From positions 57,102,001 through 57,166,000 of the forward strand of contig OX597814.1 in the NCBI GenBank assembly GCA_951406725.2: 64,000 bases of DNA, read 5' to 3'. A program made the position numbers and the translations under genes. This document shows positions 6,695 through 38,158 of the stretch, one piece after another (positions within the stretch are counted from its first letter, which is position 1; each line of letters opens with the position of its first letter). The notes beneath the pieces were generated by a model. It was given only the letters and a program-made list of their open reading frames with translations. It searched no databases and was not told the origin of the DNA. Source of the DNA: Octopus vulgaris. Lineage: Eukaryota.

Positions 6695-6896
6695 CTATCT
6701 CCGCATAGCCTTCTCAAATTCATCGTAATCAATTTTCCCATCCCTACCAGAAACTGCATCAAACATCACTTTAAGGTCCTCATCAGTGTACTTCATACCA
6801 TTTTGTTTCAATACCTGTTCCACCTCACATTTGGTGAGGAAGCCAGATTTGTCTTTATCCATCTCCTCAAAAGCTCTTCGCAACGCCTTTGGGTCG
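6695..6896 (-). CDS. Calmodulin-like four-EF-hand protein, terminal exon 3 (EF3 + EF4), shared
   Basis: Acceptor ttttctccatctag|C. Encodes (N)DPKALRRAFEEMDKDKSGFLTKCEVEQVLKQNGMKYTDEDLKVMFDAVSGRDGKIDYDEFEKAMRR*. Phase matches exon 2 (AA|C = Asn). Confidence 0.93.
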
Positions 6897-7379
6897 CTAG
6901 ATGGAGAAAAGGTTTAGAAAAAGTAAGTAACATTAATTACTATATAAAACAATGCATTATAAAAAAAGCAATAAAAAAAATAAAGGTTTCTTTTGTATAT
7001 GTAGTTTATTTTCTGTCTTTGTATGTTAATGACATAATTGCTATTACTGAAGATTTAACTAGGCTACTTGTAGCCGAATTATGTGGGTACTATAAAACTA
7101 GTTGATAGGACAGCGGTTTGTATCCTGTCATCTACACTATGCTGACATCATGGAGAAGACTTTTAACAGTTGACTCTACAAACCCTTAGCTTGAGAAGTT
7201 TTGTATTAATGACAGGTGCATTAACTTTCAGTGTAAATTTTATTTCTTCTAACTAGAAAACCCCCTTCTATAGAAGAGATAATCCCGATACTTAATAGAT
7301 TCCATCTAACCAGAGTGTGGAATTTATGTCTCATTTCGTGGACAAACGAAAGAAGAGCAGTCAACCCATTTATTGGGAA

Positions 7380-10370
7380 TTACATATATGAATCAAAGAA
7401 GTTTGATTCAAATATGTTGGTACTCAAATTCAAAATATGATTTAGAGATTTTTAATAAACATGCACCTTATTATAAGAGAGCCCTGCATGAGGCATTATA
7501 TAATAATAATATTTAATTCTTTAATATTTGTAAATATAATTATAATATAAAGGATTATAATATAAGTGATTTTTATAATAATAAACCTAATTTTCTGAAT
7601 TATGATAAGTTTTCTTTAGGTAACTATGGTCTTAATAATAATAGGTATTATGATAATATAAATCATACATTTAATATGGAATAAAAAATAAGATTAAATT
7701 TAATTCAATTAATGATGATAATAAATTTAATAATATTACAAAGAAGTGTAATAATGATAATAATAATAATAATAATAATAATAATAATAATAATAATAAT
7801 AATAATAATAATAATAATAATAACAACAACAACAACAACAAGAAAATATGGTGAATTGTTTCTTTTGGGGCTCAGCTAAAAATAAATGTTATTAACGAGA
7901 TTTTAAATATAATTGAAATGCTCATTAGGGATAATAAAAAATATAACATTTTTTCTAGTAATAATTTTGGAGTTGGTTATTCTACTACTAATAATGTTAA
8001 TAATATTATTACAAAAAGAAATTAAATAATTATTCCAATAATAATAATAAAGACCATGATATAATTTATTGTACATGTAGAGATAAGACTACATTTAATA
8101 TTAGTAATAAGTGTAATTTGGATAATGTTGTTTATAAATGTATAGTAACTTTAATTGATGATAATAATACGAATGATTATAATTTAAACGCGATCTACAT
8201 AGGGTCGACTTCGAATAAAATTAAATTAAGGGTGGCTCAACACATGTATTCTTTTAGGAATAGAAATCTAATTTTATAGGCCTCACTAAATATATTTGGG
8301 AACTTAAATCTAAATGTATTAAATATAATTTAACTTGGGAGATCATTTGTAAGGCAAAATCTTATTGTATAGGTAGTAATTCTTGTTTATTGTGTATTAA
8401 TGAATTTAAGGAAATATTATTTAATAATAATTATATATTGGTTAATTCCCGAGATTAGCGTAAAATTAAATGCAAACATAAATTAAATTACTTATATAAT
8501 AAGTTTAGCTAATTTTTCCATATATATAAAACCCCATTTTATGTTACTAATTTACTGTAGATATAATTTAAAGTAGTATTAGTGTATAAATTAGCATGAT
8601 ATATGTTATATTACATTATTTGAATACGCTTAAACTTGGATGTTTCTTAATAATTAAATGAATATATAAATTAATGAATATCTATTAATTATAGTAATAT
8701 AAATTAATTTAACTATATTATGTATATTTTACTTATTTTAATATTAATATTATTTGGACTTTAAATTTTCCAGTAAATAGTAATTTATAGTTTAGTTTTT
8801 TGTTCTCTTATTCTCTGATTCTAGAAGCTTAAATATCTTTCGTCATTTTCATTAATATAATACATACTTCTATACATTTATTCTATTTTTTACGCAACGT
8901 CTTCAAATTTCTTATAAACGCTAAGGCCTACGTTTTTACGTTTAAAATCAGATAAAAAATTGTCATAGATAAGTAATGAATTTCTTTTATAACAATATTA
9001 TTGAATTTTGAATTGAATTTTGTTTGATTATTATTGTAAAAATATTGATTTCTATATTGATTTTCTATATTATTTCTATGATTTCTATATTATTTGATAA
9101 TTATAAGTTACGATACGTATATTTATTTACTTAGTATTTTTATTATTGTTATTATCTTGTGAATTAACGTATTACATATAATTTACACCGGGAAATAGTT
9201 TTGTAAGTCAAATTCTTATCGAATAGGTAAGAATTTTTATTTGTTATGTAATATTATATTTAAGTAAATACTTTTAATAATAATTGAAGCTTTGGTTAAT
9301 TCTATAAATGAGTGTAATATATAAATTGTAATATATATAAATTGAATTAATTATATAGCAAGTTTAACTAATTTGTGTGTATATATTTGAACCATGTTTC
9401 TATTTTTAATTCTTGTACTCATAGTTTGTAGTAATATTGTGTATATAAGTTAGCATGAAGTTTTTTAGTATATATTACTTAATTAGAATAAGACTTAACT
9501 TAGATGTTTATTAAATAAATAAATTAATAATTTAATGTATATAGATTAAATTATAGTAGTTTAGCCGAATAACTGAAGAGATGGCGGCGTGGATTTCCAC
9601 CTCGGAGTTTTATCATGGCTACCAAATAATTGTCACGTATTACTCTTACAGATAAATTGCTCTATTTATATAATATCGAAGTCTCTTTCTTTCTTTTGTC
9701 ATCTTACCGTTTTTATCACTATATATATATATGTATGCATGTATGTATGTATATATATATATATATATATATATATATATATATATATATATATATATAT
9801 ATATATATATATATATATTATTGTTTTAAATATTTTGTTTTGATTACTAGTATTTTAATTTTCCAATAATGATATACTATAGTTTGTTATGTTTTCTTCT
9901 ATAAGCTGAAATATATTTTCATAGATGAAATAAATATTTATTCTAGTTTTATTTACACCACGTTTTTAACGAGATAAATTTATTATAAACAATAAGTCCT
10001 ACGTATTAAGTTTAAAGATTTAGTTAACAGAATATTTTTGATAAGATATTTGGTATTTTTATTTTAAGATATATTGTTGAATTTTGTTCGATTTTGTATT
10101 GAAAAATTACGTATTTTTATATATATTTATATTTTCTTATTTCCATCTGGGACCTGATGAATGATTATTTAACTTGAATTGATTTTACTGTTATCAGTTT
10201 GAAAATATAGCCCTGAAACACGTGTAGTCTGTTTACTAATTATATACTATTCATTTATTATTTCGTACTTTATTTAGTTCTAGGCAAATGTTTTATCGTA
10301 TCTTTAATTTTTTTCTATATGGCATGATTTAATTATGTCATTGTTGAATTGCTACATGGTGGATCTTCTC
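7380..10370 (+). mobile_element. Very AT-rich decayed Penelope-like element (GIY-YIG region, possibly Nematis-like) with two diverged copies of the 3' region, in intron 2
   Basis: About 8070-8510 reads CTCRDK..KCNLDNVVYKCIV..IYIGSTSNKIKLRVAQHMYSF..KYIWELK..WEIICKAKSY..CLLCINE..KCKH. 8520-9100 resembles 9380-10140. Relic hammerhead at about 10150-10230. Boundaries approximate. Confidence 0.7.
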
Positions 10371-10570
10371 TAATTTATACACATACATACATACATACAT
10401 ACAAATAATCATATACATACATGCATACATATATATATATATATATATATATATATATATATATATAATTGAGCATCGTATCTCCAGTCTTCGCTTTTCT
10501 ATAACATTTAGAAAGATATTACGAAGTAAGATAGGGATATGAAAAAGTAAACTGAGGTGTATAAACTTAC

Positions 10571-36075: not shown

Positions 36076-37889
36076 TAAAAATATAGGCATACCTACGGAT
36101 GTGTATCCCACCTGATTTTGTTGCTTCATAAGGTCCAGAAAAATGGATACTTTTTAACTAAATTTTCAACAAATACTGCTTAGATGTTCTAAATTTAGAG
36201 TATCCTGGGATTTGTTGCAAATAATGTTTGGAGAGAGAAGTGTTGGAAAATTCAAACGATCCGAATTTTTTCCCTTTTAACTTTCAGGAAAATGAGTATC
36301 TTTTAATGAAAGTTTATACAACTATCTTTCAAACGGCATAGATTACGATTATAAAGAAATTTTGGGTGGAAATTTTATCTGAGTGGATGGGGAGAGGAAT
36401 TTCGGATCAGGAAGTTTCCCCGTTTTGACGTGGATTTTCTCCATTTTTTATTTTTACCACAGCCTTCGGAATAATGGCGCTGATGCGGGGAGGGTACATC
36501 TTTTGTATGACAAAAAAGTTTATAAATGTTTTTATTACCCCCCACACACACACACACACACTCATCATCCCACTCCAGACCGGTTTTGCCATATTTTTTC
36601 TTTGCACTCTGAAACCATGCAAGCAGCCTATTCGGTAAAAAAAACAAACAATTGTAAATATTTTTCAGAGGAAAAAGTGTGTGATTTAAGGTTGTTGTTT
36701 CTAGCACATCCCAAGACCATACTCCTCGATTCTTTCTCACTCTCGCATGTATTGGTGTTTTTCAATATTTTTCTCTCCATAAGGCGGCGAGCACGCCGGG
36801 TGAACTGCTTACCAGTAATTTGTGTCTTTATGCCTGAGTTCAAATGCCGCCGAGGACGACTTTTCCTTTCATTCTTTCGGGGACGATAAATTAACTACCA
36901 GTTGAGTACTGAGGTCTAATCGACTGGCGCCCTCCACCAAAATTTCGAGTCTTGTGCCTAGAGTAGAAAAGAATATTTTTCTCCCCATCAACACATTTAT
37001 GTTATAAAAAAAAATTGAAAATTTATGAAATTTTTACAATTTAAAATATTGGAGAGTCTGATGCTTTTGTCCAGCAATTAAAAAAAAAGTTATGTAAGAG
37101 ATAATTCATTTTAATAACACTTTTCTGTAAGAATATGCTTTTTCTTACACACACAGACACACACACACATACACACACACACACACACACACACACACAC
37201 ACACACACACGGTCTCGATTGAGTGAGGTGGAGGTAAAAATTTTAATTGCTATTTTTTTTGCCACTTATACCCCACCAATGGACCACATGTGCGTTACTT
37301 CAGCATCATCATGTCATAAAATGTGTTTAATGAAGAAAAATAGTGTAAAACATGTGAAAAAAACATGTGAGAGTGAAAACGGAGTGCTAGAAACAACAGC
37401 CAAATCTCCTTTGAATCGCACACCTTTTCCTCCGAAAATATTTACAATTTTTTTTTTTACCGAAAAGACACCTCCCGTGGTTTTAAAGTGCAAAAAAATT
37501 GGTCAAAATCGGTTCGAAGTGGGATGGTGATAAGGGGAAAGTAATAAAAAATTTTCAAAACTTTGTTATAAAAAGATGCCCACCAATCCCATCATTTTGA
37601 AGGATTTGGTGAAAAAAATCTCCGTCAAAACGGTGAAATTCCAACTTATGAAAATTTTCTGGAAGTTATGAGGCAACAAAGTCGGTGGTGGAGTACACAT
37701 CTATAGAGATGCTTATATGTATATATACATATATGTATATATATGCACACATGCATACATATGCACATACATGCATACAGACCTACGAACACAGATTTTT
37801 TCACAGCCTAAGCTTGTGGAAGCTATTGTATATGGATGTGTTTGTGTGTTATGTATGCTTATTGTGTTAATCCAACTTAAATCACTAAC

Positions 37890-38024
37890 CTTTAGTGCCA
37901 TTTTGCTGACATTAATGTTTCTAGCTTTGAGACCAACATCAAGTTCTTCAACCGACAAACATCCATCCTTGTTTTTATCAATTTCATCGAACTTTGCTTC
38001 CCATTCTTGTTTTGTTAGATTCAT
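37890..38024 (-). CDS. Alternative first coding exon 1C (canonical EF1) of the calmodulin-like gene
   Basis: ATG at 38024, 135 nt. MNLTKQEWEAKFDEIDKNKDGCLSVEELDVGLKARNINVSKMALK, donor AAG|gttagt (phase 0), loop DKNKDGCLSVEE. Gives 140 aa if joined to exons 2+3. Confidence 0.83.
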
Positions 38025-38125
38025 CTCTTATGTGTTATATTTTCAGAAAGAAAATTCTTAAGACGAGATAGTACAAGATTCACAAGTTGTGTAGAAGTTG
38101 AAGTCGAACGTTCTTCTGCACTACA

Positions 38126-38158
38126 AACTGTAAACTAAAGAATTCGTGACATTTTATA
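38126..38158 (-). promoter_or_regulatory. TATA (TATAAAA) plus Inr-like ACAGTT core promoter of exon 1C
   Basis: TATAAAA at 38158-38152 and CAGTT about 29 nt downstream. Confidence 0.6.

Follow-up and report, generated by a model that had tools for sequence, protein, structure and literature searches.

We examined a 64,000-nucleotide (nt) stretch of the Octopus vulgaris genome (contig OX597814.1, positions 57,102,001 to 57,166,000; hereafter the window), which carries a real, expressed variable-first-exon gene for a calmodulin-like protein, with a layout of known type. In the reading that we prefer, and to which we assign a probability of roughly 70%, this is one octopus gene for a four-EF-hand calmodulin-like protein of 140-145 amino acids (aa), with alternative first exons (1A, 1B and 1C) on shared exons 2 and 3. 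First exon 1B or 1C, and 1A according to a RefSeq model only, is spliced directly onto shared exon 2 and from there to exon 3, and promoter choice would likely set the N-lobe Ca2+ sites and partner surface.

The elements of the gene are as follows; coordinates without a prefix refer to the window, and those prefixed C1 to the host genome contig.

38152..38158, minus strand: TATA-like box of exon 1C; if collinear, the contig of set X13 would start 34 nt further downstream.
37890..38024, minus strand: variable first coding exon 1C, 45 aa; donor AAG|GTTAGT; joined to exon 2 in contig sets X2 and X13; RefSeq isoform X3 of O. sinensis.
32367..32373, minus strand: TATA-like box of exon 1B; if collinear, four 1B contigs would have their first nucleotide between 19 nt downstream and 17 nt upstream of the box start.
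32093..32227, minus strand: variable first coding exon 1B, 45 aa; donor AAG|GTTAGT; joined to exon 2 in contig sets X4, X9, X14, X18, X19 and X20; RefSeq isoform X2.
13658..13664, minus strand: TATA-like box of exon 1A, directly downstream of an (AT)26 run.
13400..13549, minus strand: variable first coding exon 1A, 50 aa; donor AAG|GTAAGA; join only from RefSeq isoform X1 of O. sinensis, with an identical protein.
10571..10656, minus strand: constant exon 2, 86 nt; rest of helix C, canonical EF2 loop, helix D and linker; phase 0 in, phase 2 out.
6695..6896, minus strand: coding sequence of constant exon 3; canonical EF3, degenerate EF4 and stop.
6520..6694, minus strand: 3' untranslated region (UTR); AATAAA at 6672 and 6541; if collinear, five contigs would have their ends at 6493-6531.

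Each of the three first exons starts with ATG and ends with AAG followed by a GT donor, exons 2 and 3 have normal acceptors, and the joins of 1A, 1B and 1C to exons 2-3 are open frames of 145, 140 and 140 aa, respectively. The first exons are tandem homologues, 1B and 1C being 81% identical in DNA and 1A sharing 13-16 of 38 residues with them, and the intron up to exon 2 measures 2.7 kb from 1A, 21.4 kb from 1B and 27.2 kb from 1C. TATA-like boxes (box starts at 13664, 32373 and 38158) lie 115, 146 and 134 nt ahead of the ATGs of 1A, 1B and 1C; contigs cannot reveal transcription starts, and the promoter status of these boxes is predicted. A preliminary description made from the DNA letters had claimed three homologous ATG exons with phase-0 GT donors, a TATA box for each, and in-frame joins of these lengths; its coordinates and translations proved exact, and the recomputed frames are open.

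Evidence for splicing comes from transcript contig sets, built from 8 of 23 listed runs over 10480-13660, where loose contig ends were compared with the donors. In six of the eight sets, from six studies, exon 2 is preceded by 1B; the join is exact in X9, X14 and X19 and carries two differences in X4, X18 and X20, one of which gives the histidine seen in the O. sinensis RefSeq isoform X2. In the remaining two sets (X2 and X13, from two studies) 1C precedes exon 2, with an exact join. These are the junctions (32093->10656 and 37890->10656) that the preliminary description had proposed as a check, and both skip first exons lying downstream of them. The exon 2 sequence of the contigs has 0-1 differences from genomic exon 2 in all eight sets, and its 3' end continues into exon 3 in seven. 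Because the contigs join across both GT-AG introns and the constant exons have one genomic copy only, spliced RNA is the plain reading. In X13 (725 nt, with 1C) and X14 (750 nt, with 1B) single unbranched contigs run over first exon, exon 2 and exon 3; these are two samples of one study with different first exons, at low depth, a hint of sample-specific promoter use. The 1C-joined contig of set X2 has a word depth of 168 against 8864 for exon 2, so this set probably holds another, unlisted 5' partner of exon 2; contig depth was not used for ranking isoforms. Exon 1A (13400-13549) was found in 0/8 contig sets, which is no evidence against it, because the donor-side repeat at 13344-13399 was skipped, some records were filtered and rare forms are dropped. 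The claim of alternative first exons on one constant region thus stands on spliced contigs for 1B and 1C, and for 1A on the RefSeq model only. At exon 2 position 10603 four of the eight sets (X2, X9, X19 and X20) show T>C, an allele or editing.

All three joined isoforms are already present in automated NCBI annotation. A search with exon 3 returned three O. sinensis RefSeq proteins: isoform X1 (XP_036357478.1) is the 1A join and isoform X3 (XP_029645601.1) the 1C join, both without any difference, and isoform X2 (XP_029645593.1) is the 1B join apart from a single change. The O. vulgaris records CAI9715179.1 (1C join) and CAI9715180.1 (1B join) may derive from this very genome and do not count as independent. 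Two RefSeq records are named calcium-dependent protein kinase, a name that we reject: the isoforms are of 140-145 aa and none of the three has a kinase family in Pfam.

The constant region is single, as the preliminary description had held. Searches of the host genome (2.8 Gb) with the DNA of exon 3, with that of exon 2 and with the exon 3 protein gave one identical place each, and no second exon 2/3 copy for this gene was found with protein and DNA profiles in the window or in the surrounding 664 kb, a region free of N and gaps. The profiles recovered five exon-1 copies and four exon 2/3 sets with alike intron positions in these 664 kb, three first exons being all that were found for this constant region. 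The three other exon 2/3 sets (B, C and D) are diverged paralogues and all lie upstream of this gene.

C1:57226737-57234932, plus strand: paralogue C, from the profile search of the 664 kb.
C1:57283335-57270113, minus strand: paralogue D, from the same search.
C1:57176878-57173630, minus strand: orphan exon 2/3 set B without exon 1, a partial copy of paralogue C.

Set B lies upstream of 1C and is therefore unable to serve 1B or 1C. Exon 2/3-like sequence, decayed copies included, was not found between 1A and 1C at E below 2. Two refuting cases named in the preliminary description, private exons 2/3 and an assembly collapse, were also not found; for private exons this covers 310 kb downstream, where a distant EF-hand gene of other exon layout was the exception.

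The proteins are predicted to have the four-EF-hand fold of calmodulin, with two EF-hand pairs and no other domain. The EF1 loops are DKNKDGCLSVEE in 1C (canonical), DTSKDGNLSVEE in 1B and DKKGGNYLSLDE in 1A (degenerate, lacking ligands 3 and 5), in agreement with the preliminary description, which had called that of 1B near-canonical. The shared loops are DVDSDGKISKCE (EF2), DKDKSGFLTKCE (EF3) and VSGRDGKIDYDE (EF4), the last lacking ligands 1 and 3, a point absent from that description. The EF-hand pattern fits EF1 of 1B and 1C, EF2 and EF3, and fails for EF1 of 1A and for EF4. Pfam EF-hand_1 covers four stretches in the 1B and 1C forms and three in the 1A form, and EF-hand_7 occurs twice in each of the three isoforms, only EF-hand-type families being found. 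On these features the 1B and 1C forms likely have three Ca2+ sites (EF1, EF2 and EF3) with a paired N-lobe, and the 1A form likely two (EF2 and EF3), unpaired, one per lobe; EF4 appears dead in all three isoforms. The C-lobe that had been described as fixed is indeed shared by all forms, but it has only one canonical site and is maybe not the ancestral partner of 1B and 1C.

Statements on the fold are based on a distant, gapped alignment to calmodulin, the closest PDB matches being calmodulins (1rfj, E 1.5e-18). In this alignment the introns fall after codons equivalent to about calmodulin 49 and 78, and exon 1 runs from helix A through loop I, helix B and the linker to halfway along helix C; in exon 1C the loop is the canonical EF1. 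Since the variable exon spans most of the N-lobe groove (to about residue 49), partners would be predicted to differ between isoforms. Exons 1B and 1C encode different residues at 16 of 45 positions, among them the equivalents of calmodulin 15, 18, 19 and 39, which line the target groove. All three first exons keep the helix A aromatic, the Asp at loop position 1 and the Glu at position 12. Differences from calmodulin are the length of 140-145 aa, the dead EF4, and an inter-lobe linker that is two residues shorter and holds two prolines, because of which a continuous central helix is unlikely. The canonical intron positions of calmodulin differ from those of this gene, and calmodulin proper was rejected as an identification on the EF4 loop lacking ligands 1 and 3 and on the distant, gapped alignment. 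A profile search of 1.84 billion representative proteins was swamped by long multi-EF-hand proteins, and a protein Atlas search returned generic EF-hand clusters only.

Exons 1B and 1C share collinear homology at offsets of 5.8-6.1 kb, which takes in the promoter, the exon and about 1.8 kb of intron, with exon 2 not inside; this homology shows them to be products of a tandem duplication of a promoter-plus-exon unit of about 6 kb. Its intron part includes a pair of blocks.

36382..37038, unstranded: intron block in the 1C copy of the duplication unit; its identity with 30282-30949 is 92%.
30282..30949, unstranded: intron block of the 1B duplication unit, at 6.1 kb offset from the 1C copy.

Divergence between the two copies is 16/132 in the 5' UTR, 23/158 at the intron start and 29/651 in one intron block, and 2.2/26.5 at synonymous and 22.8/108.5 at nonsynonymous sites, giving a nonsynonymous rate (dN) of 0.246, a synonymous rate (dS) of 0.09 and a dN/dS of 2.7. 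Relative to the corresponding exon of O. bimaculoides, 12 changes are unique to 1B and one to 1C (p 0.002), an excess that presupposes a duplication later than the split from that species. Together these comparisons suggest selection on 1B. No flanking DNA is shared between 1A and 1B or 1C, and dS between them is saturated.

The O. bimaculoides protein XP_052825944.1 (LOC106868909, isoform X2) has a 1C-like exon 1, identical to 1C at 40/45 positions, and matches this gene at 52/94 in exons 2-3 (Fisher p 9e-5). Maximum-likelihood distances are 0.12 for exon 1 and 0.84 for exons 2-3, with long branches on both sides. Its exon 3 matches paralogue C at 35/64 positions and this gene at 32/65, and no exon 3 closer than 54% to it was found in the O. 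vulgaris genome. The simplest reading would be that the two species have their 1C-type exon attached to different back halves, and first exons have probably been rewired between paralogues. A similar looseness is seen in paralogues C and D (dS 0.24 in exon 1 and 0.73 in exon 3). The odds slightly favour an ancestor of 1B and 1C that came from a neighbouring paralogue which lost its exons 2-3, and which now uses those of the 1A gene: the promoter and EF1 exon would have been captured by exons 2-3 of the 1A gene. More tentatively, the whole gene may have formed by collapse of a tandem pair, through exon loss, EF1-exon capture, duplication and divergence of 1B under selection, giving chimeric sensors whose N-lobe is switched between two, two retuned and one Ca2+ site. 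On this tandem-pair collapse, the N-lobe of the chimeric sensors could, just as tentatively, have been built from two anciently diverged genes.

A number of observations weigh against our reading of the gene and of its origin. That the runs are RNA is a guess for which the GT-AG joins speak, and rare forms are lost from contigs; the 1A join comes from the RefSeq model, and four of the six contigs with a long 5' part would extend 2 to 145 nt past the TATA box. The chimera step is drawn from one gene model in one other species at the protein level, the tree of exons 2-3 has supports of 43-58 at the relevant nodes, and isoform X1 of the O. bimaculoides gene was not found among its proteins of 77-245 aa, among those of 255-2000 aa (7990 candidates scored), or in its cluster. 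The O. bimaculoides exons 2-3 are of the same length as those of this gene and, in exon 2, closest to it (19/28 against 13/28). As to selection, the dN/dS excess has p 0.09 when set against synonymous sites alone and p 0.04 against the 5' UTR, gene conversion could distort the ratio, and the age of the duplication relative to the O. bimaculoides split has tree support of 65-68, which does not settle it.

The nearness of the two exons 2 also speaks for an origin by plain exon duplication, in which a single gene gave rise to all first exons and the two octopus lineages both had rapid evolution of exons 2-3, a scenario that differs in the origin step only and that we regard as quite possible though short of even odds. 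Both O. bimaculoides and this gene lack the one-residue gap of paralogues B-D, the O. bimaculoides record is itself named isoform X2 and may have alternative exons too, and a remnant of lost exons 2/3 was not found between 1A and 1C. Plain duplication would, however, require a rate of change in exons 2-3 seven times that of exon 1C over an equal time (0.84 against 0.12), and this on both branches, though exon 1 is the faster one between paralogues, and it sits poorly with the lack of flanking homology between 1A and 1B or 1C.

An unlikely alternative is that the duplication concerns expression only, the first exons mattering as promoters, their residue differences being drift in a fast-evolving Ca2+ buffer, and 1A being a little-used relic. 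The p of 0.09 against synonymous sites is compatible with drift, as are the dN/dS ratios near 1, on few sites, of neighbouring paralogue pairs (C1/D1 1.02 and B3/C3 0.92); yet all three exons keep an open frame, the ATG, the phase-0 donor and key residues despite saturated dS between 1A and 1B or 1C, and the nonsynonymous divergence of 1B and 1C (0.21) exceeds that of the 5' UTR (0.12; p 0.04). A relic status would fit the two lost Ca2+ ligands of 1A and its join from a gene model, but O. sinensis has an identical 1A protein. An assembly artefact or a case of orphan exons, with 1B and 1C belonging to separate genes whose exons 2/3 collapsed or were lost, or being unspliced relics, is largely refuted and very improbable: the tandem cluster in this region does include a true orphan (set B at C1:57176878-57173630), but contigs join 1B or 1C to exon 2 in 8/8 sets with 0-1 differences, the annotation of O. 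sinensis, from another assembly, gives the same three isoforms, the 664 kb hold no N or gap, and the orphan set, on the same strand, is a copy of paralogue C upstream of 1C that neither exon could use.

The primary paper on variable-first-exon genes is reportedly that of Zhang, Haws and Wu from 2004. Genes described as having tandem variable first exons ahead of common constant exons include those of protocadherins, UGT, plectin, NOS1 and the glucocorticoid receptor (PMC3338513), with which the parallel to clustered protocadherins and UGT1A drawn in the preliminary description agrees. As in those clusters, homologous first coding exons stand in tandem ahead of common constant exons and intervening first exons are skipped; unlike in them, there are three variable exons here instead of tens, each making up about a third of a 16 kDa protein, and the border between variable and constant parts falls inside helix C of one lobe. 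Clustered protocadherins, moreover, form large arrays in which promoters are chosen stochastically in dependence on CTCF. Among human tandem duplicated exon substitutions, 40 of 236 are N-terminal (PMC9741552), and homologous N-terminal peptides are swapped there on a fixed protein, the class to which this gene belongs. The present case differs in being a mollusc gene for a calmodulin-like protein, probably formed in part by capture of a paralogue's first exon. An EF-hand case among the 40 human events is possible. The same source reports that ACTN1 and ACTN4 swap homologous EF-hand exons and that only one form binds Ca2+, a contrast resembling that predicted for 1A against 1B and 1C; there, internal mutually exclusive splicing acts on a large cytoskeletal protein, whereas here promoter choice would act on a free sensor. 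Duplicated 5' cassettes with alternative promoters are known for chelicerate sDscam (PMC5775551, PMC6339937), and a full plus a partial tandem copy with two full-length transcripts for Arabis PEP1 (PMC3527215). This gene resembles them in its duplicated 5' cassettes with their own promoters, which are predicted here; sDscam genes encode immunoglobulin receptors and PEP1 a MADS factor, and neither exchanges a Ca2+ site. PMC11791374 contributed nothing relevant.

Closer in protein type, caldendrin, L-CaBP1 and S-CaBP1 are forms of a calmodulin-like sensor with alternative N-termini from one gene, which are extensions ahead of EF1 and not EF1 copies. Splice isoforms of amphioxus sarcoplasmic Ca2+-binding protein may differ in the first EF-hand, but a literature search for this case found nothing. 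We found no calmodulin-like gene with homologous alternative EF1 first exons in the literature, in a search mostly outside subscription journals, and a prior description is possible; published mention of the six accessions was searched for and none was found. The novelty claimed earlier was overstated in that the layout is known and the isoforms are annotated. The known layout and existing annotation limit the surprise, and two RefSeq kinase names are wrong. The gene nonetheless offers a natural experiment, three 16 kDa proteins differing only in EF1 and its helices, for a test of how an EF-hand tunes its lobe. If true, the chimera reading would show a route to protocadherin- and UGT1A-like layouts, in which a paralogue loses its 3' exons and has its first exon captured, and this route could be dated by comparing octopus genomes.

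Several features of the neighbourhood were noted in addition. Set B has open frames, and from a point within intron 1 onward its identity to paralogue C is 88-96%; its exon 1 was not found, and its exon 3 acceptor is AAG, not CAG. Paralogues C and D share about 85% identity in a 2.5-kb stretch with promoter and exon 1 (C1:57224530-57227013 and 57285680-57283055), while their exons 3 are far apart; exon 1 may have been converted or shuffled recently. Five repeat copies about 2.6 kb apart (four on the plus strand, one on the minus) occupy C1:57209670-57221762, between set B and paralogue C, and further EF-hand exons of other layout flank the cluster on both sides (C1:56827150, 56819702 and 57339892).

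Within the window no Rfam or tRNA match was found. The long first intron holds tandem arrays of a 362/364-bp unit at 21547-23373 and 26023-26783 (5.0 and 2.1 copies, about 85% alike), which contain an internal inverted part. A near-perfect palindrome of 318 bp (95.6%), related to a dispersed repeat, lies at 41393-41710. Broken pieces of a non-long-terminal-repeat retroelement occur on the plus strand at 27-542 and 5160-6078 (RVT_1 E 5e-14, zf-RVT E 1.5e-4), and a 422-aa frame on the plus strand at 59428-60696, with a weak GIY-YIG match (E 0.007), presumably belongs to a Penelope-type element.

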